DNA from: Blastocatellia bacterium
GTDB lineage: Bacteria; Acidobacteriota; Blastocatellia; UBA7656
Reading direction: 5' to 3'
Assembly (NCBI GenBank): GCA_035607285.1
Contig: DATNBZ010000020.1
Span: 4,505 to 68,504, forward strand
DNA: 64,000 bases
A program made the translations under genes and the position numbers. The notes under the pieces were generated by a model. The model was not told where the DNA came from, searched no databases, and worked only from the letters and a program-made list of their open reading frames with translations. Shown one piece after another: positions 1,729 to 64,000 of the stretch (position 1 is the stretch's first letter; each line of letters starts with the position of its first letter).

Positions 1729-1745
1729 AGTTGGCGAGGTGCTTG

Positions 1746-4178
1746 ATGGAAACTCTACTGCAGGACGTTCGTTACGCGATTCGAGCAATGCTCAAGAGTC
1801 CCGGCTTTACCGGCGTGGCAATTCTATCGCTTGCGCTGGGGATCGGAGCGAACGCCGCGATCTTCAGCCTGGTTAACCTGATTCTCTTTCGCCCGCTTCC
1901 GGTCCTTGAGCCGTCGCGCATCGTCGAGCTCACGCCGACCAGGCAAGGAAATGAGTTCAACAACTTTTCTTATCCGCTCTACCGAGACTTCCGCGATAAG
2001 AACGAGGTGTTCGAGTCACTCGCCGTTTATCGCTTCGCGCCCATGAGCCTGAGTCGTGAAGGCAACAACGAGCGGATCTGGGGCTACATTGTGTCCGGCA
2101 ATTATTTTGACATGCTCGGCGTGAAGCCCGCCGCCGGACGCTTCTTCACACAGGAAGACGATCGCGTGCCTGGCGCGAGTCCCGTGGCGGTGGTGAGCTA
2201 CGGCTGCTGGAAGCGGCGTTTCGGAGGCGATCCCAATCTGGTTGGAAAAGAGATCACCATCAACGGCGGTCGCTTCGACGTAGTGGGCATCGCTCCCGAA
2301 GGCTTCGGTGGAACGGTAATAATCTTTACGCCGGAGATCTGGGTGCCGGCGATGATGGCGCGGCAAGTCGAGCCGGGCTCGAACTGGCTGGATTCACCCA
2401 CGAACGGAGTGTTGTTCGCGCTCGGCCGGTTGAAGCCGGGAGTCACCGAGGCGCAAGCGGCTCAATCGCTTGATGCGCTGACGGAATCGCTTGTCGGCGT
2501 GTATCCGCACATCGAAGGCCAGACGATGGTGCTTTCGCCGCCCGGGTTGGTGATCCCGGCGCTCCGCAATGGAACGCTCGCGTTTTCATTTGTTCTGATG
2601 GCCGCGGTGGGGTTGGTATTGCTGATCGCCTGCACGAACCTCGCCAACATGCTTCTTGCACGAGCGACGCGCCGCCGCAAGGAGATCGCGATTCGCTTGT
2701 CGCTTGGAGCCAGCCGCGCGCGGCTCATTCGCCAGTTGCTAACCGAGAGTGTATTGCTCGCGCTGATCGGTGGAGTGATTGGCTGGCTCGTAGCGGTGTG
2801 GATGGTGCGGCTAGTCGGCGCGTTCAAACCGCCGGTTGATTTTACGTTGACCATAGACCTGAAACTCGATTGGCGAGTGCTTCTGTTCTCGTTGGTTGTT
2901 TCTTTGATCAGCGGGGTGATTTTTGGATTGATGCCCGCGTTGCACAGCACAAGGTCTGACCTGGTATCGGCGCTCAAAGCTGAAAGCCTTGCAGCCGGCC
3001 ACAGCCGATCGCGTTTGCGAAGCTCGCTGGTTGTCGCGCAGATAGCGTTCTCGCTGGTGTTGCTGGTGGCGGCGGGGTTGATCGTGCGCAGCCTGCAACA
3101 GGTGCAGATGATCGGGCCCGGGTTCAGGACCGAACGCACGCTGACTATGTCGGTTGACCTTGGCTTGCAGGGCTACACCGAAGCGCGCGGACAGGAGTTC
3201 TACAAGGAACTGATTGCGCGCTCGGAAGCGTTGCCCGGCGTGCGCTCCGTTTCGCTGGTGAACTACCTGCCGCTTGCGATGAATCGCAACACCACGAGCA
3301 TCTACATCGAAGGCCAGCCAACACCTCGCCCCTCCGATGTGCCCGAGATTCAAAACAGCACCGTGTGGCCGAAGTATCTCGAGACGATGGGCATACCGCT
3401 CGTCGATGGCCGTGAATTCACGATGCAGGACGATAAGAAGGACCAGCGCTTCGTGATGGTCAACGAAACTTTCGCGCGCCGCTTCTGGCCGGGCGAGAGC
3501 GCGTTGGGCAAACGAATTCGCAGCAGAACGGATGGACCGTATTGGGAAGTCATCGGAGTTGCGAAAGACGGCAAGTACTGGAGCCTCGGCGAAGACCCGC
3601 AGCCGTTTATCTACTACCCGATGGTGCGCGATTACGAAGGTTCAGCGGCGTTGATCGTCAGCGCCGATTCGGAACCCACCGGGCTCATCAACGCCCTTCG
3701 CCGCGAAGTGCAACAGATGGATCCGAATCTGCCGGTCTACGACGTGAAGACGATGAACGACCACATGCGGTTGTCGCTGTTCCCGTTGCGCGCGGGCGCC
3801 TGGGTTGCGGGCAGCTTTGCGTTGCTCGCGTTGACGCTTGCGGGTCTTGGCATCTACGGCGTGATGGCGTACTCGGTAAGCCAGCGCACTCGTGAGATAG
3901 GCATCAGAATGGCTCTGGGAGCCACTTCCAGTAATGTGCTCAGCCTGGTTGTCAAACAGGGAATGCGTCTCGCGTTGATTGGGCTTGGAGTCGGTCTGGT
4001 TGGTTCGCTTGCGGTTACTCGGCTGATGTCGAGCGTGCTTTATGGAGTGAGCGCAACGGACGTGATGACATTCACATTGGTTTCCGCGTTGTTAGCGGTG
4101 GTCGTGCTTGCGGCTTGTTACATCCCGGCTCGCCGCGCGGCGAGAGTCGACCCGATGATCGCGTTGAGGTATGAGTGA
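1746..4178 (+). CDS. ADOP/MacB-like duplicated FtsX ABC transporter permease (full length)
   Basis: N-term 'METLLQDVRYAIRAMLKSPGFT', two MacB_PCD+FtsX halves, C-term 'VDPMIALRYE'; start chosen at conserved METLLQ ATG (ORF track starts 5 codons earlier at 1731). Confidence 0.9.
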   Translation: METLLQDVRYAIRAMLKSPGFTGVAILSLALGIGANAAIFSLVNLILFRPLPVLEPSRIVELTPTRQGNEFNNFSYPLYRDFRDKNEVFESLAVYRFAPMSLSREGNNERIWGYIVSGNYFDMLGVKPAAGRFFTQEDDRVPGASPVAVVSYGCWKRRFGGDPNLVGKEITINGGRFDVVGIAPEGFGGTVIIFTPEIWVPAMMARQVEPGSNWLDSPTNGVLFALGRLKPGVTEAQAAQSLDALTESLVGVYPHIEGQTMVLSPPGLVIPALRNGTLAFSFVLMAAVGLVLLIACTNLANMLLARATRRRKEIAIRLSLGASRARLIRQLLTESVLLALIGGVIGWLVAVWMVRLVGAFKPPVDFTLTIDLKLDWRVLLFSLVVSLISGVIFGLMPALHSTRSDLVSALKAESLAAGHSRSRLRSSLVVAQIAFSLVLLVAAGLIVRSLQQVQMIGPGFRTERTLTMSVDLGLQGYTEARGQEFYKELIARSEALPGVRSVSLVNYLPLAMNRNTTSIYIEGQPTPRPSDVPEIQNSTVWPKYLETMGIPLVDGREFTMQDDKKDQRFVMVNETFARRFWPGESALGKRIRSRTDGPYWEVIGVAKDGKYWSLGEDPQPFIYYPMVRDYEGSAALIVSADSEPTGLINALRREVQQMDPNLPVYDVKTMNDHMRLSLFPLRAGAWVAGSFALLALTLAGLGIYGVMAYSVSQRTREIGIRMALGATSSNVLSLVVKQGMRLALIGLGVGLVGSLAVTRLMSSVLYGVSATDVMTFTLVSALLAVVVLAACYIPARRAARVDPMIALRYE

Positions 4179-4323: not shown

Positions 4324-5895
4324 ATGATTGTGAGCGCTGAAAGCGCGCGTCAAGTTGACCGAATGAGAGGGTCGATGATCTCGAACGATGAGCCAGTCTA
4401 TCTAGATGCCTTGGGTCACTACGAGTTGGCCAAGCAACTGGGCCATCGTGTGCTGAAGTGTCCCCCTCCATACGTTATCGGCGTATGTGGGTCATGGGGC
4501 TCCGGCAAAACAAGCTTCCTAAAAATGTTATGGGCGTATCTGGGGGGACCGGTTGAACTCGTTGGCCGGAAATTTGGAGGCTTGCGTGATGATGAGCGCG
4601 CGAAATGGTTCAATGAACCGCAGGACGACTTTAGTCCCCTGCTCAATAAGAGAAAGCTGGAGCTGATTTGGTTCAACCCCTGGCAGCATCAGTTCGAGAC
4701 AAGCCCCCTCGTGGCGCTGCTGAACGAAATACGCAAGCACTTTACAATGCCGCGGAAGGCATACGACGAAGCCGGGAGGCTCATTGACGTTGCAACTCAC
4801 GCTACCCTCAACGCTCTTGCAGATTTCGGAAAGGAACTCAAGATTCCGATCCCAGGCGCGAAAGGGATCATGGAAAGGGGCCGCGAATATGAAGGCGAGC
4901 ACTTTTCAACAGGACTGGCTTCGCAGCGTTTCCGCGATTTCTTTGAGGAGGCAATTCGTTCAGTCACCAAGAAAGGATTGCTGGTAATCTTCATTGACGA
5001 TCTCGACCGCTGCGAAGGTGACGTCGCTTATCATCTGCTTGAGGCACTAAAGCTTTATGTCAATGCGGATAACTGCATCTACGTTCTTGGGCTTGATCAG
5101 AACCACCTTGAGAGATCAATAGCGAAAGCATTGTCCGGGGAAGCAGAAAAGTGGCGTCATCGACCTCTCGCACGGGACTACCTCAGCAAGATATTTCAGA
5201 ACCTTTACCATCTACCGGTTCCGCGTCATACGTCACGGTACGTCGACGCCTTACTCGATGCAGACGACCCTGCCTTTAAGGCGCAACTTGGCCAGCTCTT
5301 TGGCCTAAATAATGCTGACTGGAAACTACTTGTAGAAGCGCTTGACGACAACTTGCCTCACAACCCTCGTAAGATTAAATCGTTCATTGGGTCGTGGAAA
5401 CTGTATCTTGATTCACTCATCAAGCCGGAAGGGCCCTCGGATAAGCTCGATTGGCGCCTGACATTGATACTGCATTATCTGGCGCAGTTTGAAGAGCCGC
5501 TCTTCCGAAAAGTTGAGGAGGCTCCCGCTTTCTACAGCGATTATATCATCCGATACTCCCGTGATGGCATCAATCGACACCCGTTGTTCGAGGGACTCGA
5601 GTTGCCTTACAGCACACCCTCGGCTGGATCAGAGGCTGACGAGAAGGGCGGACTCCCCTCGCCAGCGTCTGCTGCAGCGGCGGCCGATGAGTCTCAGGAT
5701 AACAAGAAGGATGAAAAACAAATCGAGGTTCAACCACGGATCTTTTGGATTAGTCGGTTGATTAACGGGCTTGCAAAAGAGACGAGATTTAAGCTCGATG
5801 ATGAAACCGTTCATCGCCATCTTCTGAGATCTGGTGGTAAGACACCCGAGCCGCCGCCCCCATTGCCTATTGTCCCAGGGGAGGCCACCGAATGA
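4324..5895 (+). CDS. KAP-family P-loop NTPase
   Basis: Walker A 'GVCGSWGSGKTS', Walker B 'LLVIFIDDLDRC', KAP signature 'NPRKIKSFI'; low-complexity acidic/Pro-rich C-terminus; start codon uncertain (M1, M14 or M18). Confidence 0.85.
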   Translation: MIVSAESARQVDRMRGSMISNDEPVYLDALGHYELAKQLGHRVLKCPPPYVIGVCGSWGSGKTSFLKMLWAYLGGPVELVGRKFGGLRDDERAKWFNEPQDDFSPLLNKRKLELIWFNPWQHQFETSPLVALLNEIRKHFTMPRKAYDEAGRLIDVATHATLNALADFGKELKIPIPGAKGIMERGREYEGEHFSTGLASQRFRDFFEEAIRSVTKKGLLVIFIDDLDRCEGDVAYHLLEALKLYVNADNCIYVLGLDQNHLERSIAKALSGEAEKWRHRPLARDYLSKIFQNLYHLPVPRHTSRYVDALLDADDPAFKAQLGQLFGLNNADWKLLVEALDDNLPHNPRKIKSFIGSWKLYLDSLIKPEGPSDKLDWRLTLILHYLAQFEEPLFRKVEEAPAFYSDYIIRYSRDGINRHPLFEGLELPYSTPSAGSEADEKGGLPSPASAAAAADESQDNKKDEKQIEVQPRIFWISRLINGLAKETRFKLDDETVHRHLLRSGGKTPEPPPPLPIVPGEATE

Positions 5896-8663
5896 CGGGT
5901 GTGATCAAGAAAGACCTCGAAGGCGATTACAAGTTATTGCTCTCATGGCGCTATAACAGCGTCGAGTTCCTTGGTCTACCTAGCCTGAAAGAGAATCGCC
6001 CGTTGACGCTCGAAGAGATATACATACCTCTGAGCTTTGCGTGGGAACAAGGTAGTGACAAGCGTGTCTACCTACCTGAAGCTCTAGAGACGAGCCGGCA
6101 ACTGGTCATACTAGGCGACCCAGGTTGCGGAAAGTCTACCCTGATTAAATTGGTTACCTACTCATTCGGAAGAACTGAACCTACACCACTCTCCCAGCGT
6201 TTTGGCCCGCTCGTGCCGGTGCCCATCATTCTGCGGGACTACCATGTTGGCTCATGGCAATCTAAAGAGGACATGCTGGACGATTTCATTGGCCAACTCG
6301 ACGAAGATATTCGTGATCGTGTCAGTGTGGGATGGCTATTGAGGGCATTACAAGAAGGCCGTGGCTTATTGCTCTTAGATGGCTTGGACGAAGTGGGAAG
6401 CAGTGAAGACCGCCTACATCTCAGAAACGACATCGTGCGCCCTTTACTTTCGATAATGCCCGAGAGTTATGCAATTCTCACTAGTCGGATAGTCGGCTAT
6501 GAAGAAGTGCCATACGGACATGACGAGGTTGGCATACTTCCACCCTTACTTCCTCGGTGCTACGTAGCGCCGTTCACTGATGAGGATATCGACCAGTTCA
6601 TCACACGCTGGTATGCGGCTCGCGAGCCTAACCCTGAGCGCAGGCGTACTGGGCTTCACTCGCTCGGCCAGGCCTTGCACCAGAATGACCGGATCAAGCG
6701 GCTGGCCACCAATCCTTCCCTGCTGACCCTGATGGTCTTGATCCATCGCGTCACGGCCCATCTACCGTCGGGCCGTGTGAAGCTCTACGACAAGATAGTC
6801 GAGGCCTATCTTGAGACCATCCAAACCTATCGGAAGCTCGGTCAATACCCAGCTTCGCTCGACCAGATGAAGCGCTGGCTTGCGAGGGTCGGTTGGGAGA
6901 TGCAGTCCAGCCGCGTTGGCGCTGGGGAAGGGGAACTAATGGTGCCACGCGATGACATCGTGGCATGGCTCACCGATGCCATCGATGTGGATCGCGTCGG
7001 CGCGGCGGCGGAAGCTGCCCAGTTCTTAGACTACGTGGCGCGCCGTAGTGGACTCTTGATTGAGCGCAAAAACGATGTGTTTGCATTCGTTCATCTGACT
7101 TTTCAAGAGTACTTTGCCGCGTTTCATCTGCGCGGCAAACTTGGACGCTTCGATGATTTGGCGAGCACGTCTGGCTTCCTAGTTGCGCAGGTTCACTGGC
7201 ACGAAACGCTTAGCCTTTTGTTTGAGATGCTGGCCGAATTCCCGGGAGCAGGGGACGATTTGTTGAATGAGATAGAGGAACGAACGAAAGGGTTTCCCGA
7301 TAAACGCGTCGGCGCGGCGGAGTTCGTCGCGGATTTATTATTGGACGACCAGAGCGGACTTGGTTTGCGTAGACAGACACAGGCGGCGGCCTACGCGCTA
7401 GGCGTAGCGACCGGCAGTTTCGATGAGGCAGTACTCGCGAGATTAAAACAACTCCCAGCAGACCGGTTCGAACAACTGGTCCGCAAATGGTTGGAGAAGG
7501 AACTCTGGCGTGCGAAACCGGAAAAACTGGGCCGCGATTTCTTTGTTGTTGGAGGTGATCTATTAGAGGACTGGTCACGCGTGTTGGGAGAATGGGTGAC
7601 TGCGCGCGGCGAGTTGCCATGGAGTGACTCGCAAATCGAAGACATCATTCTCATTGCCGGAGAGAGTCCCGAGGTGCACCGATGGGCGACGGAGTCGCTG
7701 CCTCTGAGCGGATGGCTGAAGGCTCGATCCTTGAGCTGGCATCATTACGGTTTGGCGAATCTGGCCGAGCTCAACTTGACTACATTGCTGGAAGCTAATG
7801 ATGAGTGCCCTCGGCATCAACTGCTAACTCAATTTGGTCTCGCTTCAGCTATCTCGGGCTCGGAGCTCATAAGGGTCTCGACGGCTTTGGCTTTCCATCA
7901 GAGGCCTGATCAGCCTGTAGTCCGGGCGTTGAGAGGAATTGAGGAGATCCTTCAGGATCGCGTTAAGCGCTATGCTCGGATGCTGGCTCTAGACTTGGCT
8001 ATGGGTCAGGCTTCTCCTCGGGATCGGGCACGAGTAGCGAGCCGAGGTCTGATTGTGGACCCGTATCTGGATGAACCTTTGGTTGGCCCTCTATTTCGTT
8101 CTTTGATCCTCTCTTCGCGTCTTCAACTGGCTTCAAATCTCGAATTGGCAATCTCATCATCAAAGCCGAAGCTGAGCGAAGAAAACAGAAAGATTGCCGC
8201 GCTCGCCGATGCAGAGTGTCTGTTCTTTTCACCTAAGACCTCACCCAAGCAATTCAATATCACAACGCGCAGTCTAAAAGAAATGACAACGGCCCAGGAT
8301 GAATGGACTCAACTGCTCGCCCTCTCCGCTTTGCTGATGCTCGGTGCAGGGACACCGAAAGCCTGCGGCAGCCGCAATGAGTTACTCGATAAGGCCATGA
8401 GGCAACCTCAAGCGTTCAGCTTTCCGCAAAAGGTGCGGCTGGAGACGGACACCCCCGCCTTCCACGAATCGCTTCCGAAGCTCATGCGTATGGTCTTCCT
8501 GCACGACCCCGACGATCCGTGGCTTTTGCCGGAGAAGCTTGATCGCTCGAATCCCGAGTCGCGTTTTTTCGTTTCTAGCCCACGCGAGTTCTATGCGCTC
8601 GCAGCCGAGGTTCTCGACCCTGAAGGCAAAACCGAACTGGCAGAATGGCGGAATAGTGATTGA
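5892..8663 (+). CDS. NACHT-domain STAND NTPase with about 480-aa alpha-helical C-terminal region
   Basis: Walker A 'ILGDPGCGKSTL', Walker B 'LLLLDGLDEV', sensor-1 'ILTSR', 'NPSLLTLM' motif; GGGAGG RBS 7 nt upstream; start overlaps the KAP stop by 4 nt (ATGA). Confidence 0.85.
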   Translation: MTGVIKKDLEGDYKLLLSWRYNSVEFLGLPSLKENRPLTLEEIYIPLSFAWEQGSDKRVYLPEALETSRQLVILGDPGCGKSTLIKLVTYSFGRTEPTPLSQRFGPLVPVPIILRDYHVGSWQSKEDMLDDFIGQLDEDIRDRVSVGWLLRALQEGRGLLLLDGLDEVGSSEDRLHLRNDIVRPLLSIMPESYAILTSRIVGYEEVPYGHDEVGILPPLLPRCYVAPFTDEDIDQFITRWYAAREPNPERRRTGLHSLGQALHQNDRIKRLATNPSLLTLMVLIHRVTAHLPSGRVKLYDKIVEAYLETIQTYRKLGQYPASLDQMKRWLARVGWEMQSSRVGAGEGELMVPRDDIVAWLTDAIDVDRVGAAAEAAQFLDYVARRSGLLIERKNDVFAFVHLTFQEYFAAFHLRGKLGRFDDLASTSGFLVAQVHWHETLSLLFEMLAEFPGAGDDLLNEIEERTKGFPDKRVGAAEFVADLLLDDQSGLGLRRQTQAAAYALGVATGSFDEAVLARLKQLPADRFEQLVRKWLEKELWRAKPEKLGRDFFVVGGDLLEDWSRVLGEWVTARGELPWSDSQIEDIILIAGESPEVHRWATESLPLSGWLKARSLSWHHYGLANLAELNLTTLLEANDECPRHQLLTQFGLASAISGSELIRVSTALAFHQRPDQPVVRALRGIEEILQDRVKRYARMLALDLAMGQASPRDRARVASRGLIVDPYLDEPLVGPLFRSLILSSRLQLASNLELAISSSKPKLSEENRKIAALADAECLFFSPKTSPKQFNITTRSLKEMTTAQDEWTQLLALSALLMLGAGTPKACGSRNELLDKAMRQPQAFSFPQKVRLETDTPAFHESLPKLMRMVFLHDPDDPWLLPEKLDRSNPESRFFVSSPREFYALAAEVLDPEGKTELAEWRNSD

Positions 8664-9380: not shown

Positions 9381-9510
9381 TTCTGCGGACTCCCATTCAT
9401 CGTCTTATGGCTTGCATTGTAGCACAAAGATGCGGTGTCCCAGGAGGTTACACTGTCAGGCGTCCTGCGCTACTATTGCGTCCAGCAGAGTTTCGCGCGT
9501 GAGGCGTTCA

Positions 9511-11982
9511 ATGGAGACTATCCTTCAACACATTCGATACAGCGTTCGGTCGCTGATAAAGACCCCAGCCTTCACGGCGGTTGCGATCGTCGTTCTTGCG
9601 CTTGCCATCGGCGCCAACACCGCGATCTTTACCGTAGTCAACGCCGTGCTGATTCGGGCGCTCCCTTATCCCAATTCGGATCGGCTCGTGATGCTCTGGG
9701 AAACAAATCCGCGGTTCCAGATCGGAATCGATACGCTGCCCGTTACGCCAGGGACTTTCATGGATTGGCGAGAACAGAGCAGCGTCTTCGAACATATCTC
9801 AGCGCTGGGAGCCGGGCGTTTGAATCTGTCGGGCTCGGGTGAGCCTGAACGAATCAGTGGCGCCACCGTCTCTGCAAATTTCTTTCGATTGATGGGTATT
9901 GAGCCGAAGCTCGGTCGGGCGTTTCAAGACGACGAAGAGAAGCCCGGCGCAACCAAGGTGGCTGTCATAAGCCATGCGCTTTGGCAGAGGCGCTTCGGTG
10001 GCGCGGAGGATATTGTTGGGAAACCGATGACGCTCGACGGCGAGAGCTACACTGTAATCGGCGTCGCACCGGAAGGATTCCAGTTTCCACGCGCACGCGA
10101 GCTTCCTTACTTCGTCGGCGTGTCGTCGGCAACAGAGCTATGGCGACCGATGATTCAGTCGGAAGATTTCATTAGTAAGAAACGCGCGAATCATCAGATG
10201 ACGGTCATAGCGAAACTCAAACCCGGCGTTACTCGCGAGCAAGCTCAAGCCGAGATGACTGCGATCGCCTCGCGGCTCGAGCAAGCCTACCCGGAGAACC
10301 AGGGAATCGGCGCGAAGGTCGTTCCGCTAAGCGAGCAAGTCGTCGGCAACTCCAGAATCGCGTTGCTTGTATTGATGGGCGCGGTTGGATTGGTTCTGTT
10401 GATCGCGTGTGCGAACGTCGCCAACCTGATGCTCACTCGAGCTTCGGGAAGAAGGAAAGAGATTGCTATTCGAATCGCGCTCGGCGCAAGTCGCCGGGAC
10501 GTAATACGTCAACTGATGAGCGAGGCCCTGCTCCTCTCGCTCGCAAGCGCAGTCGCCGGAACGCTGTTGAGTCTCTGGGGCGTCAAAGCGATGCTGGCGC
10601 TAACGGGCAAAAATCTTCCCCGGCTGAACGAAGTCACTGTCGACCCGACGGTTCTTGGATTCACCGTAGCGATCGCCTTGCTGACCAGTCTGTTCTTCGG
10701 ACTGACACCCGCGTTGCAAGCTTCAAAAATCAATCTCGTCCAGACGCTGAAGGACGGCTCTCGAGGACAGTCAGGCGGGCGAGGTGCGAATCGCGTTCGC
10801 GGCGCGCTGGTTGTTGCGGAAGTTGCTCTCTCGCTGGTGTTGCTGATCGGCGCCGCGTTGATGATCAAGAGTCTTGCGCAACTGCTCGAGGTCGATCCGG
10901 GCTTTAAGACCGATCGCGCGCTCACAATGAACATAGCGTTGCTCGGATCAAAGTACCCGAGCGCGAATCAGCAAATCGGTTTCTTCGACGAGGTTCGCCG
11001 TCGCGTCGAGGTTTTGCCCGGCATCGAGTCTGTAGGGTTGATCTCATCGGCGCCTCTGAGCGGAGGAGTCTACGCGGGAGGCTTCTCGATCGAGGGCCGT
11101 GGGCCGAGGTCGGCGAATGAAGACCTCTCGGCCGACAGACGAATGATCAGCCCCGAGTATTTCAACGCTCTTCAGATTGCGCTCATCAAGGGCCGCTACT
11201 TCACCGAACGCGATAATCAAGCGTCGACCGGGGTCGCGATTGTGAGCGATTCGTGGGCGCGACGGTTTGTGCCGGACGACGATCCGATTGGCAAGCGCAT
11301 CAAGCTTGGCGGCCGCGACTCGACTCGACCGTGGCTTTCGATTGTTGGAATAGCCGGAGACGTTCGAGACACCGCGCTCGAATCGGATGCGCGGCCTTGC
11401 GTGTATTTGCCTTATTCGCAGTTCCCGGCTTCGAGTATGTCTCTTGTTGTGCGCACCGCGGTCGATTCCAGAGCCGAGTCAAAAACCTTGGTGCCCGCGA
11501 TTCGAAGCGAGGTGTGGGCGATCGATAAGGACCAGCCGGTAACGGACGTAAAGACGATGGACGAATACGTCTCGGATTCGGTTTCACCGCGTCGCGCGAA
11601 CGCGCTGCTGCTGGCCGTGTTCGCGGCGTTGGCGCTTGCGCTTGCCTCGATAGGAGTCTACGGAGTGATGGCTTATTCGGTGGCGCAGCGAGTTCGCGAA
11701 ATCGGTATCCGGATGGCGCTTGGCGCGCAGAGGTCGGATGTTGTCAGGCTGATCGTCGGAAGCGCTATGACTCTCGTGTTCGCGGGTGTGGGGATCGGGC
11801 TCGCGAGCGCGCTGGCGTTGAGCCGCGTGTTATCGAGCTTACTTTATGGAGTGAGCGCGACCGATCCAATGACTTTTGCTTTCGTTTCTGTTTTGCTTGT
11901 GTGCCTGGCATGGTTCGCAAGTTACATCCCGGCCCGCAGGGCTACAAAGGTTGATCCGATGATTGCCTTGCGACACGAATGA
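9511..11982 (+). CDS. ADOP/MacB-like duplicated FtsX ABC transporter permease (full length)
   Basis: 'METILQHIRYSVRSLIKTPAFT...' to 'VDPMIALRHE'; start taken at the conserved MET codon 9511 rather than the ORF-track start 9412. Confidence 0.9.
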   Translation: METILQHIRYSVRSLIKTPAFTAVAIVVLALAIGANTAIFTVVNAVLIRALPYPNSDRLVMLWETNPRFQIGIDTLPVTPGTFMDWREQSSVFEHISALGAGRLNLSGSGEPERISGATVSANFFRLMGIEPKLGRAFQDDEEKPGATKVAVISHALWQRRFGGAEDIVGKPMTLDGESYTVIGVAPEGFQFPRARELPYFVGVSSATELWRPMIQSEDFISKKRANHQMTVIAKLKPGVTREQAQAEMTAIASRLEQAYPENQGIGAKVVPLSEQVVGNSRIALLVLMGAVGLVLLIACANVANLMLTRASGRRKEIAIRIALGASRRDVIRQLMSEALLLSLASAVAGTLLSLWGVKAMLALTGKNLPRLNEVTVDPTVLGFTVAIALLTSLFFGLTPALQASKINLVQTLKDGSRGQSGGRGANRVRGALVVAEVALSLVLLIGAALMIKSLAQLLEVDPGFKTDRALTMNIALLGSKYPSANQQIGFFDEVRRRVEVLPGIESVGLISSAPLSGGVYAGGFSIEGRGPRSANEDLSADRRMISPEYFNALQIALIKGRYFTERDNQASTGVAIVSDSWARRFVPDDDPIGKRIKLGGRDSTRPWLSIVGIAGDVRDTALESDARPCVYLPYSQFPASSMSLVVRTAVDSRAESKTLVPAIRSEVWAIDKDQPVTDVKTMDEYVSDSVSPRRANALLLAVFAALALALASIGVYGVMAYSVAQRVREIGIRMALGAQRSDVVRLIVGSAMTLVFAGVGIGLASALALSRVLSSLLYGVSATDPMTFAFVSVLLVCLAWFASYIPARRATKVDPMIALRHE

Positions 11983-24279: not shown

Positions 24280-24419
24280 TGAGCCCTGAGGCGGGCGCGC
24301 TCGAAGGTAGCACAAACTACCTCGAGCGGAAATTATCCATCAAACTGGAAGGAAGCTCGGGAGGAAGCGCGCGAGCGTATGCTCGATGCGTCTGAGCCCC
24401 GAGCTAAGGGGTGGCACAC

Positions 24420-26816
24420 ATGGAATCCCTGTTACACGACCTTCGGTACAGTACCCGCCTGCTGATCAGGAAGCCCGCGTTTACCGCGCTGGCAGTCATT
24501 ACATTGGCGCTTGGAATTGGCGCGAACACCGCCATTTTCAGCGTCGTGAATTCCGTCCTGCTCCGTCCGCTTCCGTATCCGCACCCAGAAAGGCTGTTGA
24601 CGATCCGTTCGAATCAATCGGTCCCGGATCTCGACGACATCAAGGCTCAGAGCCAGTCGTTTGAATACTTCGGCGGCTCGGTGATGCAGGCTCTTGATTA
24701 CACCGGCGAAGCTGAACCGCTCCAGGTGCAGGCCTCGCTCGTCAACGCAGACTTGTTCAAGGCTCTGGGTGCGCAAGCTGCCATCGGACGCGTGATCAAC
24801 GACGAAGAGGATCGATTCGGTGGCGAGCCGGTAGTCGTGTTGAGCCACGGCTTTTGGCAACGGCACTTCGGCGGCGATCGCGGTGTGCTTGGAAAGCCGG
24901 TTCAACTGAGCGGCAATAGCTACACGGTCATCGGAGTGATGCCTGCTGATTTCGTGATGCCAACCGAAGCTCCCGATCTGTGGGCTTCCGTTCGAGTGGC
25001 GAATCCCGTAGCCGCTCGTTTTCGAGGCGTGCATTTCCTCCGAAACTATTTGCGGCTCAAGCCAGGAGTACCGGCCGCCCAGGCGCAGGCCGAGATGGAG
25101 GGCATTGACGGCTGGCTATCCGAGCATTACCCCGAAGAGAACAAGAACCGCCACACAGTTCTTTTGTCTTTGCACGATCGCGTCGTCACCAACTCGCGTT
25201 CCGCTTTGCTGATCCTGTTCGGCGCCGTTGGACTGGTTTTGCTGATCGCGTGCGCTAACTTCGCGAACCTGCTGCTTGCGCGCGCGGCGGCGCGGCGCCA
25301 GGAACTGGTGATTCGCGCGGCGCTGGGCGCGGGACGAGCGCGATTGGTGCGCCAGATGCTCACGGAAAGCACGCTGCTTTCACTCGTCGGAGGAGCGGGA
25401 GGGCTCGTGTTGGCGATGTGGGGCGTAGATCTCCTGACCGCGCTCAAGCCTGCGAACCTTCCGCGCCTGTCTTCGATTGGAATCGATGGCTGGGTGCTGG
25501 CTTTCACACTTGGAATCTCGGTGCTCACGGGTGTGATTTTCGGACTCATCCCTGCGTTGAATGCTTCGAAGCTCGAAGCCGGTGAAGCGTTGAAAGAATC
25601 GTCGCGCGGCTCGACGGGCGGCATCGCCAGACTGCGCGCGCGCAACCTGCTTGTCGTGTCGGAGATCGCGCTTGCGCTTGTTCTGTTGATCGGAGCCGGG
25701 CTGCTGATCAAGAGCCTCTGGCGGCTGAGGACGATCGATCCGGGGTTCAATCCCGACGGGTTGGTCACTATGCGAATCGAGCTGCCCGAAGCGCGCTATC
25801 GAGAGATCCCCAAACAGACTCAATTTCGGCAACGCGTCCTCGAGTCGATCAACTCGATTCCCGGAACTCAGGCGGTGATGATCAGCGAGCTTCCGATGAG
25901 CGGCGACAACCTGATGCACAATTTCATCATCGACGGACGCCCGCCGCTCGCTACGGGAACGGAACCGGAGCTCGAGACTCGCACTGTAGCCGGCGACTAC
26001 TTTCGAACGATGGGGATTCCGCTGATCGCCGGCCGTGACTTCACCGAGCAGGACAACGCAGACGCGCCGATGGTCGGCCTGGTCAACGAAAGCTTCGTGC
26101 GCGAGTACTTTCCCAATGAGAGTCCGATCGGCGGACGAATCGCGTGGGCAAGAGGAACGCCGCGACAGTGGATGACAATCATAGGGGTCGTTGGGGATGT
26201 GAAACACTTCGGTCTCAATCTCCCTGAGCTGCCCGCGTTCTACGGCTCGTACGTGCAGTTGAATCAGCCGTGGAAGCGATGGATGTACATGGCTGTTCGA
26301 GGCGATCAGGGTTCGGGAGCGCTGATCGGGCGGGTCAAGAGTGAGATTTGGAAAGTAGACCCCGCGATCCCGCTCACCAAGCTCCGCACGATGTCTCAAG
26401 TCATGTCGGCTTCGCTTTCAGCCCAACGCTTCAACATGACGTTGATGGGAATCTTCGCGGGCGTCGCGCTGGTGTTGGCGGCGGTCGGCATCTACGGAGT
26501 CGTGTCCTATTCGGTGGCGCAGCGCACACACGAGATAGGCATTCGCATGGCGTTGGGCGCCGAGACCGGCGATGTGCTGAGAATTGTTTTGAGACAAGGG
26601 CTCATGCTGGCTGGTTTGGGAGTGGGGACCGGGCTTGTGGCGGCGTTCGCGGTCAGCCGAGTGATGTCGACTCTGCTCTTCGGTGTGAGCACCACCGATC
26701 CGGCAATCTTCTTAGCGATTTCGGTTGTGCTGACAGGAGTGGCTCTGGGAGCCACTTTGATCCCAGCTCGACGGGCCACAAAAGTGGACCCGATGATCGC
26801 ATTGAGATATGAATGA
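24420..26816 (+). CDS. ADOP/MacB-like duplicated FtsX ABC transporter permease (full length)
   Basis: 'MESLLHDLRYSTRLLIRKPAFT...' to 'VDPMIALRYE'. Confidence 0.9.
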   Translation: MESLLHDLRYSTRLLIRKPAFTALAVITLALGIGANTAIFSVVNSVLLRPLPYPHPERLLTIRSNQSVPDLDDIKAQSQSFEYFGGSVMQALDYTGEAEPLQVQASLVNADLFKALGAQAAIGRVINDEEDRFGGEPVVVLSHGFWQRHFGGDRGVLGKPVQLSGNSYTVIGVMPADFVMPTEAPDLWASVRVANPVAARFRGVHFLRNYLRLKPGVPAAQAQAEMEGIDGWLSEHYPEENKNRHTVLLSLHDRVVTNSRSALLILFGAVGLVLLIACANFANLLLARAAARRQELVIRAALGAGRARLVRQMLTESTLLSLVGGAGGLVLAMWGVDLLTALKPANLPRLSSIGIDGWVLAFTLGISVLTGVIFGLIPALNASKLEAGEALKESSRGSTGGIARLRARNLLVVSEIALALVLLIGAGLLIKSLWRLRTIDPGFNPDGLVTMRIELPEARYREIPKQTQFRQRVLESINSIPGTQAVMISELPMSGDNLMHNFIIDGRPPLATGTEPELETRTVAGDYFRTMGIPLIAGRDFTEQDNADAPMVGLVNESFVREYFPNESPIGGRIAWARGTPRQWMTIIGVVGDVKHFGLNLPELPAFYGSYVQLNQPWKRWMYMAVRGDQGSGALIGRVKSEIWKVDPAIPLTKLRTMSQVMSASLSAQRFNMTLMGIFAGVALVLAAVGIYGVVSYSVAQRTHEIGIRMALGAETGDVLRIVLRQGLMLAGLGVGTGLVAAFAVSRVMSTLLFGVSTTDPAIFLAISVVLTGVALGATLIPARRATKVDPMIALRYE

Positions 26817-58411: not shown

Positions 58412-59944
58412 TCACACCAGTGCTCGCAACCCGTCGGCTCGCATGGTTCCGCGCTGTTTCTTGAGCTTCAACAACTGCGTCTTCATTATTGCGGCAAGCC
58501 GCTTCACTCCTTCGTCAATAGCCTGGGGACCCGCCATGGTGAATGACAGCCTCATTACATTTTCCTGCGGCGAGCTTGCGAAGAAGTGGTCGCCGCTGAT
58601 GAAGGTCACGCCGCTCTCCGCGGCTTGATGCAGAAGCTGTCTGCTGCCGAGCGCGCCGGGCAAACGCACCCAAACCGACATCCCGCCTTCGGGTCTGCTC
58701 CAGCTTGCTTCGTCCGGGAAGTAGCGATCCAGCGCCTCGAGCATTGCATCGCGCCGCAGCCGGTAGGCCTTCTTGACGCGCTTGATGTGTTTAGCAAGTA
58801 AGCCGCGTTTGGCGAATTCGTGAATCGCAGCTTGCGCAAGCAGGCTCGCGTGCAAATCGCAGCGCTGCTTTACGCGATTGAGATGTTCTATGACGATCTT
58901 GGGAGCAGCTATCCATCCTACTCGCAAGCCGGGAAACCCAACCTTCGAAAAGCTGCTGATGTAGATAACCAGGCCGTGCTCATCGAGCGCCTTGAGCGGC
59001 GGGACTTCAGGGCCGTCGTATCTAAGCTCGCGATAAATGTCATCTTCGATTATCGGAACGCGATACCTGGCCGCGACGCCGATCAGTTGCCGGCGCGCGG
59101 CCGAGTCCATCGTCACGCCGGTCGGATTCTGAAAGCTCGGCACGACGTAGATCAGTTTCGCTCGGCGCTGAGAGAGAACGTCTTCCAGGACATTCAGGTC
59201 CATTCCATTCGCGCCGACCGGAACGCCGATGTACTTGGAACCGCCGCCGCAGAACACACTGAGCGCGCCGGGATAAGTCGGGTTCTCGAGCACCACTTCT
59301 TCACCGGGCTCGACCAGTATCTGCCGGATCAGATCGAGCGACTGCTGGCAGCCGTTGGTAATGAGCACTTCATCGGCCGACACCTTCGCGCCTGAAAGCG
59401 CGAGTTGCGAAGCGATATATTGCTGAAGCGGCGCGTATCCGCTGGTCGCTCCGAGCTGAAGCAAAACGCGACCTTGTTTTCGCAGGACCCGATCGACCGA
59501 GCGTCGAAAATCATCGAGCGGGAAGAGATCGGCCGAAGGAAGCGCGAGCGCCAAAGAAATGCCGTCTCGCCGCTGTTCCAGGCTGCTCATTTCTGCCAGC
59601 CAATTGTCACGTGTCTGAAGCGTCAATAGCGCGTCCCATAGCATTGGTGAGGATACGGGTGATCCAGCATCCTGTGTTTTGAACGAAGCGCGCGGCATCG
59701 GCGCCGGCAACCGGCTTACGTAAGTGCCGCTGCCGACGCGAGAGCTTATCAAGCCATCCGCGGCAAGTTCGGCATACGCCGTTGTAACCGTGTTGCGATT
59801 GACTCCAAGCGTCCTGGCGAGTTCGCGATTAGCGGGCAACCGGTCACCGACCTTCAGCGCGCCGTCAGTCATTCTTCGGCACACCTCGCTGACGATTTGA
59901 GCGTAAAGCGGGACGTGGCTGTCACGGTTGAGTTCCAAAAGCAT
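58412..59944 (-). CDS. MocR/GabR-type transcriptional regulator (GntR HTH + PLP-dependent aminotransferase domain)
   Basis: 'PLYAQIVSEV...LPANRELARTLGVNRNTVTTAYAEL' HTH, aminotransferase class I/II fold; start at M83 (the ORF-track N-terminal 82 codons translate the family-1 repeat). Confidence 0.85.
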   Translation of the reverse strand: MLLELNRDSHVPLYAQIVSEVCRRMTDGALKVGDRLPANRELARTLGVNRNTVTTAYAELAADGLISSRVGSGTYVSRLPAPMPRASFKTQDAGSPVSSPMLWDALLTLQTRDNWLAEMSSLEQRRDGISLALALPSADLFPLDDFRRSVDRVLRKQGRVLLQLGATSGYAPLQQYIASQLALSGAKVSADEVLITNGCQQSLDLIRQILVEPGEEVVLENPTYPGALSVFCGGGSKYIGVPVGANGMDLNVLEDVLSQRRAKLIYVVPSFQNPTGVTMDSAARRQLIGVAARYRVPIIEDDIYRELRYDGPEVPPLKALDEHGLVIYISSFSKVGFPGLRVGWIAAPKIVIEHLNRVKQRCDLHASLLAQAAIHEFAKRGLLAKHIKRVKKAYRLRRDAMLEALDRYFPDEASWSRPEGGMSVWVRLPGALGSRQLLHQAAESGVTFISGDHFFASSPQENVMRLSFTMAGPQAIDEGVKRLAAIMKTQLLKLKKQRGTMRADGLRALV

Positions 59945-60047
59945 GGTTGGCCCTCGAACTTTCAAGTGGGCTATCTGACCGAACCATTCTACAGTGGAAA
60001 TGAGTGACGTAAAGAGCCAATTGTGGGCCAATTGTCTGATGCCAATT

Positions 60048-60217
60048 CTGATAACGACATGTAGGGTCCCGATAACGACATGTAGGGTCCCGATAACGAC
60101 ATGTAGCGTCCCGATAACGACATGTAGGGGCGGCCCTCCGTGGCCGCCCCTCCGTCGCGACGTCTCGGGACGCGAAAGAGGGGCGGCCACAGAGGGCCGC
60201 CCCTACATGTCGTTATC
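60048..60217. repeat. Palindromic element, family 1, preceded by 3.5 tandem copies of a 21-mer GATAACGACATGTAGGGTCCC
   Basis: Direct reading; the 21-mer is the 5' arm of the palindrome amplified. Confidence 0.75.
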
Positions 60218-60234
60218 AAGAAGGCCGCGCCCGG

Positions 60235-60816
60235 TTATGTTGCGTCGTAGCCCACGAATTCTTTCAGATACGTATTGCCTTTGTATTCCATTTCATCGTG
60301 AATGCCGATCTTCGAACTGTAGTACGCGCGCGCCGTGCTTGACTTCAATTCTTTGAAGAACAATTCCTCCGGCTTCTGAGGGTTCATCTCGTTGTCCGAG
60401 ACTCGAGTAAGCAAGGCGACGCGTTGCTCCTGAGACGCGTCCAGAAATCGCTTGCCATGCATTTCCTGTGACAACTGCTCGATCAGTTTGAGCCCGTCCC
60501 GCCACATACTCTTAGGCTTGTCTTCGAATGATTCGGACAGTCTGAAGTCTATATAACCAGCGACCTGAGCCGCTCGCGCGCCCGCGGAGTGTTCGTCCGT
60601 AGGGATGATCAACTCAGTCAACTCATCGACAAGCGCGAATTCTTCTTTCGTGAAGAACAACGGCGGCTTGTCCTGTGCTGCCTGGGCCAGTCCGGAATCA
60701 ATTCCGATGAGAGTAGCCGCGACCGCAGCGCTCGCGCCCAACTTGATCAGCTCGCGACGGGTTAAGCCGGTTTCGTCTTCCGTGCCGATCCGGCTATCAG
60801 CGTTTTCGTCAGCCAT
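60235..60816 (-). CDS. Gluconate 2-dehydrogenase subunit 3 family protein (TAT-exported small subunit)
   Basis: 'TRRELIKLGASAAVAATL' TAT signal; 1-nt TAATG overlap with the upstream GMC gene. Confidence 0.75.
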   Translation of the reverse strand: MADENADSRIGTEDETGLTRRELIKLGASAAVAATLIGIDSGLAQAAQDKPPLFFTKEEFALVDELTELIIPTDEHSAGARAAQVAGYIDFRLSESFEDKPKSMWRDGLKLIEQLSQEMHGKRFLDASQEQRVALLTRVSDNEMNPQKPEELFFKELKSSTARAYYSSKIGIHDEMEYKGNTYLKEFVGYDAT

Positions 60817-62609
60817 TACAGGTTTCCTTTCTTGAAGTGGTCCGCAAGGTAATCGCAGGACCTCCAGGCGAGCGCCATTATTGTCCACGTTGGATTCTGA
60901 CACGACGCGCTTACGTGACTGCTGCCGTCCACCACGAACAGGTTCTTCACATCGTGCGACTGTTGAAATTGATTCAGCACCGAAGTCTTTTTATCGGTTC
61001 CCATTCTCGCCGTTCCCAGCTCGTGAATTGACCAGCCCTCGGTCAGGATTCGACGTCCGACGTTGACGATTTCGAAGCCGGCTTCGGCGAACATTTCCTG
61101 CGCGGTGTCCGCCATATCCTCAGCCATCTTCTTTTCGTTGTCGCCGAATTTGTAGTTGAATCGCAGAACGGGCACGCCCCATTTGTCTTTCATCGCCGGA
61201 TCGATATCTACATAATTCTCATATCGCGCGAGCACTTCTCCAAACGCTCCCATCTCGATAAACGCGCCCGAATAATCGCGCACAGTTTTCTTGTAAGCCG
61301 CGCCAAAGCCCGGCGTCGACGTCGTATTGTCCGGAAACATGGACGAGCCTGCCCCGCCTTCGAATCCGTAGCCGCGGATAAAGTTGGCATGCCGGTCGGT
61401 AAGATTGCGAAAGCGCGCGAGGTAGAAATGGCCCGGCTTCCCGTCGTCGAGTGTATGTGGTTTACCCACTTTGTCTTTGACCAGTCCGGTGACGTGCGGT
61501 CCCATTATGTGCTCGCAGAAGTTGTGGCCCACGTGCCCGCTCGAGTTTCCTATCCCGTTCGGGTGCGCGTCCGACTTTGACAAAAGCATCAATCGAGCCG
61601 ACTCCAAAGTGGAAGCCGCGATAACAACGACTTTTGCTTTTGCTTCGTAGGTCTTCCCGGTCTGGGCGTCGATAAAAGCCACTCCGCTCGCCTTACCGGT
61701 CTTCTTATCGACGCTCACCTGGTAAGCGATCGAGTTAGTCCGCAGCGTAAGATTGCCCGTGTCCATCGCGGGCATGATCAGCCCGGTCGGCGAATCGAAC
61801 GCAGCGTGAATATCGCAACCGCCTGCGCGACGATTACAGGCGCCCCGGCCAAAGCACCTGCTTCGGTATTTGTTGTGCTTCAATCCGTCGGTGGTCACAC
61901 CGGCTCGATAGGGAGTCAGGACGCGGTTCATTTTCTTCAGGCTCTGGCGCAGTTTCTGCTCGGCCTCGACAAGTTTTATCGGGCGCTGGAAAAGGCTGTC
62001 GGGCAGATGCGGCAGGTTCTCTTTCACGCCCGAGATTCCAAGATAAAGATCGACCTTGTCGTAGTACGGCGCGATGTCCTTGTAGGAGATGGGCCAGTCG
62101 TCGCCGTAGCCGTCGTGACTCTTCGCCTTGAAGTCCAAATCAGATAAGCGCAACGCGAGCCTTCCCCAAATATTCGTCTTGCCGCCCAATACGCGCGCGC
62201 GAACCCAGGCATAGTTTGTACCGGTGTAAGGATGCTCACGCTCATCGACGACTATGTTTTTGCTGTAGTCCGAGCCCCCCCAGCCCTGCACGTATGAATG
62301 CACCTGTTTGAACTTTGTGTCGGCGGCGTAAGGCGGCTGCCGAATCGTGTATTCATTCAACGAGAGCGCGTGATGGCTTGGCGGCATTTCTCCGCGCCGC
62401 TGATGTTGATAGGGCCACTCGGTCGATTTGAGTTCCTTGTCGATGTCGAGTTTCTTGCCGGCTTCGAGCATGAGCACCTTCATGCCGTGTGAGGTCAGAA
62501 CGTGTGCGGCCATGCCACCGGCTGCCCCGGAACCGACTACGATAGCGTCATAAGTCTTTTTGAGATCGACTTCGTCTCGGGTTGCGCCGATCAAGCGAAT
62601 GAGTCTCAT
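60816..62609 (-). CDS. GMC-family FAD-dependent oxidoreductase (sugar/gluconate dehydrogenase flavoprotein subunit)
   Basis: 'YDAIVVGSGAAGG' FAD motif and GMC C-terminal domain; start at M55 of the ORF-track ORF (GGAGA RBS). Confidence 0.85.
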   Translation of the reverse strand: MRLIRLIGATRDEVDLKKTYDAIVVGSGAAGGMAAHVLTSHGMKVLMLEAGKKLDIDKELKSTEWPYQHQRRGEMPPSHHALSLNEYTIRQPPYAADTKFKQVHSYVQGWGGSDYSKNIVVDEREHPYTGTNYAWVRARVLGGKTNIWGRLALRLSDLDFKAKSHDGYGDDWPISYKDIAPYYDKVDLYLGISGVKENLPHLPDSLFQRPIKLVEAEQKLRQSLKKMNRVLTPYRAGVTTDGLKHNKYRSRCFGRGACNRRAGGCDIHAAFDSPTGLIMPAMDTGNLTLRTNSIAYQVSVDKKTGKASGVAFIDAQTGKTYEAKAKVVVIAASTLESARLMLLSKSDAHPNGIGNSSGHVGHNFCEHIMGPHVTGLVKDKVGKPHTLDDGKPGHFYLARFRNLTDRHANFIRGYGFEGGAGSSMFPDNTTSTPGFGAAYKKTVRDYSGAFIEMGAFGEVLARYENYVDIDPAMKDKWGVPVLRFNYKFGDNEKKMAEDMADTAQEMFAEAGFEIVNVGRRILTEGWSIHELGTARMGTDKKTSVLNQFQQSHDVKNLFVVDGSSHVSASCQNPTWTIMALAWRSCDYLADHFKKGNL

Positions 62610-63042
62610 TGTTAGTCTCCCGGCTGCGGTCTGTGCCGCATGAGTACTCCAATCGAATCGCGGAGTCAATGCATAAAGTGAGTTGGTAGTAGGTTGGGGT
62701 TGACGGCAAGCTTGGGAGTGAAGTATAAGCCACACAGTTGCACTGCGTGATTGCCTGAAAATCGGAGGCAAACCATCTTGTTGGTCCTCAGGTTACCTGC
62801 TGAAACCGGGCATTGGGTACGACAAACCTGGACTTATCCCGGGGAAATTCAGGAAATTGCAGATGAAATTGCAGATATTGTGCAGCTACCTCCGGTGTCG
62901 CCATTATTCTCAGGAACTGAAGAGTAGCAAAGGCCCCGGCTACTGGGGGGAAGGCGGAACGATTTCAGCTTTCCAAGTGCTTCGCGTGGAGCGAGGAGCA
63001 CTGTAGATACGTCGTTGAGCGCCGCTACCAGGGGACAGGATA

Positions 63043-64000
63043 TGAGTAATCAAGTTACATTGTCGGTCGTGCGACTAATCAATGCAGCAGGGAGTGTTGC
63101 GGGCATTGGATATGTGACCCCTGAGAATCGCATCATTACCTGCGCCCACATGGTTACGCAGGCGCTGGGCATCCCAAAGGACACCGCGCAGAAGCCTGAC
63201 GCCGACGTGACGGTCGATTTTCCGTTTGTGGAAAGAGGTAAAACCCGAACGGCGAGGGTAGTGCTATGGCGAACGGTATATCAGAGCGCTGCCCTTCCCC
63301 TCGATGGCATGGAAGACACAGCGGTGCTCGAATTTGCCGATGAGCCGCAGATCATCGCTCCGCTTGCCACTACATTGGGGGACACGGATTACGAATATAT
63401 GATTGATGCTATTAGGACTGGCCAGGTGATCCCATTTTTGGGAGCAGGTGTCAATCTGTGTGACAGGGCGGAAGGAGAGCGTTGGAATGCTACGCGCCAG
63501 TATCTACCGAGCGGCGAAGAGCTATCTATGGCCCTCGCCGCGGAATTCGGGTATCCGTGGTCCGATAGCGGTGATCTTCTACGCGTCTCTCAATACGTCG
63601 CTCTCATGCATACTCTTGATCGCCTGAACGCGAAGTTGCGTACAATATTCAACCGAGACTACCCGCCGACGTCTCTCCATGAGTTCTTTGCGAGACTGCC
63701 AAGCGTTCTGCGCGGCAAAGGCTATCGTCCCAACCTCCTGATCGTCACAACCAATTATGATGATCTTCTCGAAAGGGCATTCACTCAATTCGCTCAACCG
63801 TTTGATTTGGTGACCTATTGGATTGGAGATCAAGACGAGCAGCGCGGCAAGCTGTTGCATTGGACAATGGATGGAAAGCGGTGCCCGATTGACGATCCCA
63901 ACAAGTACGACGGCATCAAGCTCGACGAGCAGAGAAATCTTGTCAACCCCGTAATACTGAAAGTGCACGGCGCAGTTGATCGGACCACCGCCGGTTTCAA
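63043..64000 (+). CDS. SIR2-like (SIR2_2-type) domain protein with N-terminal trypsin-like half-domain; 3' end beyond the window
   Basis: Open frame from ATG 63043 to the window end (absent from the ORF track because no stop is reached); 'VIPFLGAGVNL', 'LLIVTTNYDDLLERAF' and 'VILKVHGAV' match SIR2_2 motifs; N-term 'GSVAGIGYVTPENRIITCAHMV...DTAVLEF' resembles the His/Asp half of a chymotrypsin-fold protease. Confidence 0.7.

Follow-up and report, generated by a model that had tools for sequence, protein, structure and literature searches.

A trypsin-like half-barrel fused to a defence-type SIR2 domain in a predicted SIR2/nSTAND1 conflict module from Blastocatellia

Background

Immunity that joins a STAND NTPase to a SIR2 domain is known in the form of a single fused protein, Avs5 (AVAST type 5), and passages in two reports (PMC11897194; PMC12931631) give activation of Avs5 by oligomerisation or filamentation as established. 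The titles of PDB structures of ThsA, KomC and DSR2 describe helical or oligomeric assemblies. In their descriptions of the nSTAND1, iSTAND and VMAP conflict systems, Kaur et al. (2020, 2021) defined a clade of trypsin-like effectors.

Here we describe a locus at the end of a 64,000-nucleotide stretch of a Blastocatellia bacterium (assembly GCA_035607285.1, contig DATNBZ010000020.1, positions 4,505 to 68,504), hereafter the window, in which the SIR2 protein and the STAND NTPase are split between two genes. It appears to be an uncharacterised and widespread STAND-plus-SIR2 system whose effector acts in trans. PADLOC holds no model for the SIR2/nSTAND1 pair and returned only marginal matches for the NTPase partner, and a literature search covering nSTAND1, SIR2-STAND/Avs5 and Trypco/EACC found no description either of the pair or of a half-trypsin domain, while related loci are present in several hundred species-level genomes of at least ten named lineages.

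Results and discussion

Gene structure at the window end

The SIR2 gene begins near the end of the window as a partial coding sequence at 63042..64000 on the plus strand, comprising codons 1-319 of 432, with the full length known from the protein P0001 encoded on metagenome contig L001. A sequence-only reading of the window had described a frame still open at its end, and all 319 codons from 63042 to base 64000 are indeed free of stops. The start, which it placed at 63043, has to be moved by one base, since translation from 63043 yields a frame full of stops and the ATG occupies 63042-63044. A Shine-Dalgarno-like AGGGGA (63030..63035, plus strand), read from the sequence, ends 6 nt before this ATG, and the start methionine is conserved in the family alignment (A1). 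Upstream lies a GMC oxidoreductase gene on the minus strand, the coding region of which ends at about 62609. The gene boundaries leave a divergent intergenic region of 432 bp (62610..63041) between the two, in agreement with the earlier estimate of about 430 bp, and the promoter is presumably located there; a sigma-70 consensus scan of these 432 bp was uninformative. The five motifs singled out earlier were all recovered in the corrected translation: IITCAHMV at residues 31-38, DTAVLEF at 92-98, VIPFLGAGVNL at 129-139, TTNYDDLLE at 236-244 and LKVHGAV at 306-312. On the opposite strand, an ORF at 63579-63968 shadows the SIR2 gene.

P0001, a protein of 432 aa named 'SIR2 family protein [Blastocatellia bacterium]', shows 100% identity over all 319 residues present in the window. 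It is encoded by two metagenome contigs, L001 and L002, which match the window base for base from about 60,200 to 64,000. All sequence past base 64000 was taken from these proxy contigs, and we infer that it extends to the genome of the window itself. At their other end, both contigs stop at window positions 59758-60200 (L001:1-443), inside a GntR-aminotransferase gene. Mismatches to the window in the ungapped overlap number 230 positions for L001 and 209 for L002, those of L001 all falling within about 59,760-60,200 with complete identity from there on. The divergence of L001 from the window at 59758-60200 reflects a breakpoint at strain level or else an artefact of the contig end.

A defence-type SIR2 domain

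Following the N-terminal region, a SIR2 domain of the SIR2_2, NADase type occupies residues 114-319 in the window (63381..64000, plus strand) and continues beyond it to residue 432, as supported by Pfam, PADLOC, an alignment to ThsA and Foldseek. The SIR2_2 assignment, made earlier from motifs, is upheld by Pfam family PF13289, which scores 28.3 bits on the window fragment against a gathering score of 24.5 and 82.3 bits on full-length P0001. The Pfam search of the full-length protein finds no other SIR2-type family at E<=0.01 and shows that the protein ends with the SIR2 domain. The best PADLOC match is the SIR2 part of ThsA, at 57 bits. In a phmmer alignment, Asn238 (63753-63755, plus strand) and His309 (63966-63968, plus strand) fall on N112 and H152 of Bacillus cereus ThsA, which we take to be its catalytic residues. 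The GAG motif, G134-A135-G136, lies at 63441-63449 on the same strand. Residues G134, G136, N238 and H309 are invariant in 27/27 subfamily members, and A135 forms an invariant column in alignment A1.

An AlphaFold2 model of the protein has a pLDDT of 79.8. Among the 50 best matches listed from a Foldseek search against PDB, all are defence sirtuins, namely DSR2, KomC and ThsA, with E-values of about 1e-11 and a probability of 1.00. A canonical sirtuin with a Zn-ribbon, named beforehand as the finding that would overturn the SIR2_2 assignment, is not what is encoded here: no CxxC is present, and the only cysteines are at positions 34, 140 and 281. From these sequence and structure comparisons, the domain is predicted to be a defence-type SIR2 that would act as an NAD+-consuming enzyme.

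The N-terminal domain is a single barrel of a trypsin-like protease

Residues 1-102 (63042..63347, plus strand) correspond to the first beta-barrel of a chymotrypsin-fold (trypsin-like) protease, as evidenced by profile search, HMM and fold. They are joined to the SIR2 domain by a low-confidence, poorly conserved linker, residues 103-113 (63348..63380, plus strand), which coincides with a pLDDT dip at residues 101-110 and with variable alignment columns. Two of the residues expected of a protease are kept in the window protein, His36 (63147-63149, plus strand) and Asp92 (63315-63317, plus strand). The trypsin-like half-domain suggested by the sequence-only reading is thereby confirmed as barrel 1 only, with an HMM of complete proteases matching residues 1-102 at E=6e-29. 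The particular check it had proposed, a search with Trypsin_2, gave 14.7 bits, below the cut-off of 27.6, and it was the protease-built HMM that reached significance. Attempts to assign the domain from curated libraries were set aside: Pfam offered Trypsin_2 and PUA_3, both sub-threshold, and a PDB profile search gave protease matches at non-significant E-values of 0.4-1. Because the curated sequence libraries were inadequate, the identity of the domain was settled by exhaustive profile search together with fold search.

A profile of the N-terminal domain, searched against 1.84 billion representative proteins, returned 2,783 matches, 1,047 of them at E<=1e-10. Nearly all matches lay at residues 1-107, in proteins whose length ranged from 100 to 1,940 aa. 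Among the matches listed, 110 of the 112 that are at least 280 aa long possess a complete Pfam Trypsin_2 domain, followed by C-terminal partners that include nSTAND1 (28 cases), AAA_16/AAA_35, iSTAND, TPR, WD40, TIR_2 and EAD9. In these proteins, the alignment does not end at the shared strand 'EDIAxLEL' but goes on into another barrel, which carries the Ser motif GFSGxPVW. The His, Asp and Ser are invariant in the long trypsin proteins, which are mostly nSTAND1 fusions (alignment A4). Identity between the window barrel and complete trypsins is 40-45%. Both homology and fold thus place the N-terminal barrel with the PA-clan (chymotrypsin-fold) proteases, although the two-barrel His-Asp-Ser triad is absent, there being one barrel and no Ser. 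A second-barrel HMM derived from complete proteases found no match in any of 120 SIR2-family proteins. By sequence homology, then, the domain is assigned as barrel 1 of the trypsin-like effector clade of STAND, iSTAND and VMAP conflict systems.

Two further proteins, P0125 (533 aa) and P0162 (469 aa), have barrel 1 with no detected second barrel, and continue with WD40 repeats in one case and TPR repeats in the other. This may mean that half-trypsin modules originated on more than one occasion, or these two proteins may carry a divergent second barrel in the stretch left unassigned.

The partner is an nSTAND1 NTPase with a transmembrane-like segment

On L001, the SIR2 stop codon is followed after 18 bp by a gene (L001:4601-6520) for a protein of 639 aa that matches Pfam nSTAND1 (PF20703) at 148.9 bits. 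Contigs identical to the window end thus carry an nSTAND1 gene in the same operon. Ten gene pairs were looked up individually. The order is SIR2 then nSTAND1 in nine of them, and according to gene calls the two are separate genes in all ten. These pairs include stand-alone SIR2 proteins of 316-317 aa and one with an unrelated N-terminal extension; the exception is a cyclase-SIR2 fusion with an nSTAND1-WD40 gene 1.3 kb upstream. Pfam detects no EAD adaptor domain in either the SIR2 protein or its partner, which starts directly with the NTPase module.

All eight partners examined share a Walker A motif (GxSGxGKS, about residue 49) and a Walker B motif (hhhhDQFEE, about residue 141), which read GASGVGKS and LLIILDQFEE in the window-type partner. 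One strongly hydrophobic, transmembrane-like segment follows the NTPase module at about residues 435-497, also in 8/8 partners of SIR2. Such a segment occurs as well in 17 of 19 trypsin-fused nSTAND1 members, such as P0122 and P0136. The region C-terminal to it is variable: the window type has a coiled coil in which two cysteines are conserved, and others have WD40 propellers or a CAP domain. To illustrate, the partner of P0004 (73% identical), the closest N-domain-bearing relative among those with a looked-up neighbourhood, has WD40 repeats, whereas the window-type partner has none. Truncation of the partner gene by the neighbouring IS1595 element was considered and ruled out, as a 652-aa orthologue aligns with it from end to end. 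Fast turnover of the C-terminal region is what is expected of a sensor, and this region probably acts as one. The sequence-based topology prediction would put the variable C-terminal domains outside the cytoplasm, an unusual location for a sensor of the STAND/NLR type. CAP domains are usually extracellular.

Genomic neighbourhood

The sequence-only reading had regarded the SIR2 gene as part of a defence-enriched region together with a KAP/NACHT island. The KAP/NACHT pair is itself real, comprising a KAP-family P-loop NTPase gene at 4324-5895 (plus strand, 97 bits) and a NACHT-domain gene at 5892-8663 (plus strand, 923 aa). It is separated from the SIR2 gene by 54 kb that include housekeeping genes, so the two do not make up one island, and the defence context that does stand comes from the nSTAND1 partner and from the restriction-modification and toxin-antitoxin genes downstream on the proxy contig. 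The KAP and NACHT genes overlap by 4 bp, are flanked by MacB/FtsX permease genes and form a candidate two-gene defence pair of their own. Three paralogous MacB_PCD/FtsX permeases of about 800-856 aa occur within 25 kb, at 1731-4178, 9412-11982 and 24411-26816. A search of the window for a second trypsin gene or an nSTAND1 gene found none. The 12 kb upstream of the SIR2 gene encode housekeeping functions: RadA, an SLH/BACON protein, GNAT, glutamate dehydrogenase, PNPOx, the GntR-aminotransferase, gluconate 2-dehydrogenase and the GMC oxidoreductase.

After the nSTAND1 gene, L001:6774-13177 carries an IS1595 transposase, a methyltransferase gene with a restriction-like gene (753 aa, MTase/NmeDI_C), and a pair formed by HTH and SocA/Panacea genes. 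With a G+C content of 0.47-0.50, this block falls below the genes on either side of it, which have about 0.54-0.57, and beyond it lies an S1-P1 nuclease gene. In a related Pyrinomonadaceae genome (L003:9275-10182), the nSTAND1 and S1-P1 nuclease genes adjoin directly. Given this arrangement and the lower G+C, the block looks like a later and recent defence-island insertion beside the gene pair.

Distribution of the pair and origin of the fusion

A scan of species-representative genomes identified 343 related loci. Among the best 80 of these, 78 could be evaluated, and 76 of the 78 have nSTAND1 directly downstream on the same strand, with the other two about 560 bp away; for these 78 reference loci, adjacency was judged from where the nSTAND1 region starts relative to the SIR2 match. 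The hosts belong to Chloroflexota, Acidobacteriota, Actinomycetota, Gemmatimonadota and Myxococcota, and further to Gammaproteobacteria, Verrucomicrobiota, KSB1, Rokubacteria and a Firmicute. The barrel-1 fusion was found in only six loci of the same scan, all from Pyrinomonadaceae/Blastocatellia.

Tandem SIR2/nSTAND1 pairs are seen on L006:11-9594, and likewise on L015, L046, L073, L079 and L091; six of the best 80 loci contain two SIR2 ORFs. The first pair on L006 consists of a stand-alone SIR2 and a WD40 partner of 1,584 aa, and the second of a half-trypsin-SIR2 and a partner of 767 aa. The N-terminus of the SIR2 family is a hot spot of domain accretion, as seen in P0095 (L012:5001-6506), P0062/P0067 (L013:67-1269) and P0086; the additions other than the barrel are a guanylate/adenylate-cyclase domain, a Zn-ribbon-like CxxC…CxxC start and a Gly/Val-rich repeat segment of about 90 aa.

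The window-type partner shares 49-56% identity with its counterparts at other SIR2 genes, one stand-alone SIR2 included, and only about 25% with trypsin-fused nSTAND1 proteins. This difference, about 50% versus about 25%, implies that the SIR2/nSTAND1 operon is the older element and that the barrel was added to the 5' end of the SIR2 gene. It likewise rules out insertion of SIR2 into a trypsin-nSTAND1 gene, the partner grouping with those of SIR2 genes. Between the SIR2 domain of the window protein and stand-alone SIR2 proteins, identity is 50-58%. P0225, P0251 and P0142 are complete trypsin-SIR2 fusions, the last with a caspase domain in addition. P0225 can be dismissed as a direct ancestor, since it is about 30% identical to P0001 in both domains and so represents a parallel fusion. 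On L008, a 183-aa gene upstream of a stand-alone SIR2 was considered as a split-off N-terminal domain and rejected, having no similarity to it, and the 432-bp region upstream of the window gene holds no Trypco1 remnant that could be found. The fusion could have been created by a deletion that fused the SIR2 gene to the first 330 bp or so of a trypsin-type gene beside it, a model made plausible by the existence of tandem arrays of such systems.

Proposed mechanism and alternative explanations

The reading that we favour, with a probability of roughly 0.7, is that the ORF opens an NLR-like conflict or defence module of two genes, in which an NAD+-depleting SIR2 protein works with a STAND partner and the half-barrel is accessory. 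Gene 1 would supply a cytoplasmic SIR2 effector that consumes NAD+, and gene 2 a P-loop NTPase of the nSTAND1 type, in which the Walker A and B motifs are intact and a single transmembrane segment precedes a variable C-terminal region, the probable sensor. On the model of Avs5, DSR2 and ThsA, NTP-dependent oligomerisation of the STAND protein would be set off by a trigger. The oligomer would then assemble or activate the SIR2 partner, with the result that NAD+ is depleted and the infected cell is stopped. In Blastocatellia, the barrel of a conflict-system trypsin-like protease would have been grafted onto this pre-existing SIR2/nSTAND1 operon. The NADase activity, the activation by the STAND partner, the antiphage role and the role of the half-barrel are in each case what we infer from these comparisons. 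Since the same NTPases also partner stand-alone SIR2 proteins, which have no N-terminal domain, the half-barrel is not needed for the basic coupling. A broader and more tentative proposal, on which we would not yet rely, is that SIR2/nSTAND1 constitutes a widespread, unnamed transmembrane NLR-like immune system with an outward sensor and an effector in trans, and that the single barrel was co-opted as a functional module; the barrel might pair with itself, mimic the two-barrel fold and nucleate SIR2 assembly.

What the half-barrel does, if anything, bears on two of the alternatives. With the Ser barrel absent and the His and Asp unconserved, it is not a protease. In 27 members, the position of His36 is occupied by His in 11, E in 8, D in 4, Q in 2 and S in 2, and that of Asp92, by a hand count on alignment A1, by D in 17, N in 8 and K in 2. 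An active protease might in principle be rebuilt in trans with a second barrel from elsewhere, and the window protein does retain both residues; the loss of His in 16/27 and of Asp in 10/27 refutes this as a family-wide mechanism, and as barrel-2 sequence is absent from the window and from all 80 related loci, we regard it as very improbable. The same decay of catalytic positions would fit a functionless relic of deletion or recombination, leaving the SIR2/nSTAND1 core as the only part that matters, as would the faster divergence of the N-terminal domain (mean pairwise identity of 41%, against 64% for SIR2, across the 27 members), the sharing of the same partners by stand-alone SIR2 proteins in many phyla, and the confinement of the fusion to one bacterial class. 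Nevertheless, G21, A94 and L96 of the barrel core are invariant, G23 and W76 are found in 26/27, and the length stays at 104-123 residues with no truncation in any of these 27 divergent members. In P0032/P0033, the sole pair unsaturated at synonymous sites, the dN/dS of the domain is 0.13, equal to that of the SIR2 domain, and in the saturated pairs pN (0.13-0.44) is far below pS (0.66-0.80). Fixed core residues, stable length and these substitution ratios indicate that the domain is maintained by purifying selection, and its fold is confidently predicted in the structure model, all of which makes a mere relic unlikely. The half-barrel is most likely an accessory module for interaction, oligomerisation or regulation of the SIR2 effector.

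The other two alternatives concern the system as a whole. It may be doubted that the pair serves defence at all: it could be a different conflict or signalling device, responding in soil bacteria, for instance, to extracytoplasmic or kin-recognition cues, with the SIR2 domain acting as an ADP-ribosyltransferase or as a producer of a signalling nucleotide. The transmembrane segment followed by variable domains, one of them a CAP, suggests an outward-facing sensor; nSTAND1 systems have been linked to multicellular or social bacteria (Kaur et al.), and the genes upstream are housekeeping genes. Yet the nearest structural matches are without exception defence sirtuins that hydrolyse NAD+, conservation extends to the catalytic Asn and His, restriction-modification and toxin-antitoxin genes lie alongside, and the sensor region of the partner varies quickly among close relatives, as is typical of immune receptors, so that we hold such a role to be a rather weak contender. 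Hardly credible is a canonical sirtuin deacylase with a regulatory housekeeping role. It takes encouragement from the NCBI name of a relative, P0096, 'SIR2 family NAD-dependent protein deacylase', but is opposed by the missing Zn-ribbon and CxxC in a protein of three cysteines, by the match to PF13289 and to no other SIR2-type Pfam family at E<=0.01, by the lack of any canonical sirtuin among the 50 best fold matches listed, and by the strict gene pairing with a STAND NTPase.

Comparison with known systems

The two-gene module that we favour would extend what is known of STAND-plus-SIR2 immunity to a different STAND clade, one that has a membrane anchor and highly variable C-terminal domains. 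If the predicted topology is true, the partner would work as an NLR-like receptor for events taking place beyond the cytoplasm. A lone chymotrypsin-fold half-barrel under selection is a rare natural example that bears on the evolution of the two-barrel fold, and it would represent a new kind of pseudo-enzyme module on an immune effector.

Like the present locus, Avs5 combines a SIR2 NADase-type effector with a STAND NTPase. In Avs5 the two reside in one polypeptide, whereas here they are encoded by two genes with a stop codon and an 18-bp gap between them; the NTPase here is, moreover, of the nSTAND1 clade with a transmembrane segment, and the effector bears an extra half-protease domain. ThsA of Thoeris, DSR2 and KomC are the closest relatives of the SIR2 domain in both sequence and fold, with equivalent Asn and His residues. 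The locus is nevertheless not Thoeris, as it lacks a SLOG/STALD domain and a ThsB/TIR partner, no TIR gene being found on the proxy contig within 10 kb downstream or about 3.3 kb upstream (to the contig end). Nor is it DSR2, from which it differs in having no fused C-terminal sensor and in having a STAND NTPase as its neighbour.

With the trypsin effectors of the nSTAND1, iSTAND and VMAP systems (Kaur et al. 2020, 2021), the locus shares an N-terminal domain homologous to their barrel 1 and an nSTAND1 NTPase as operon partner. It departs from those systems in having half of the fold, no Ser, no Trypco1/2 neighbour and no EAD, and in that its predicted effector is the SIR2 domain. The complete trypsin-SIR2 protein P0225 agrees with the window protein in the order of its domains and in the type of NTPase encoded downstream, its operon (L095:4687-10232) consisting of Trypco1, then the trypsin-SIR2 fusion, then nSTAND1-WD40. 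P0225 has both barrels and an intact triad, and its SIR2 catalytic His is replaced by Tyr (ILKLYGT). It is thus the mirror image of the window protein: in P0225 the protease is intact and the SIR2 His is lost, whereas in the window protein the protease half is dead and the SIR2 domain is intact.
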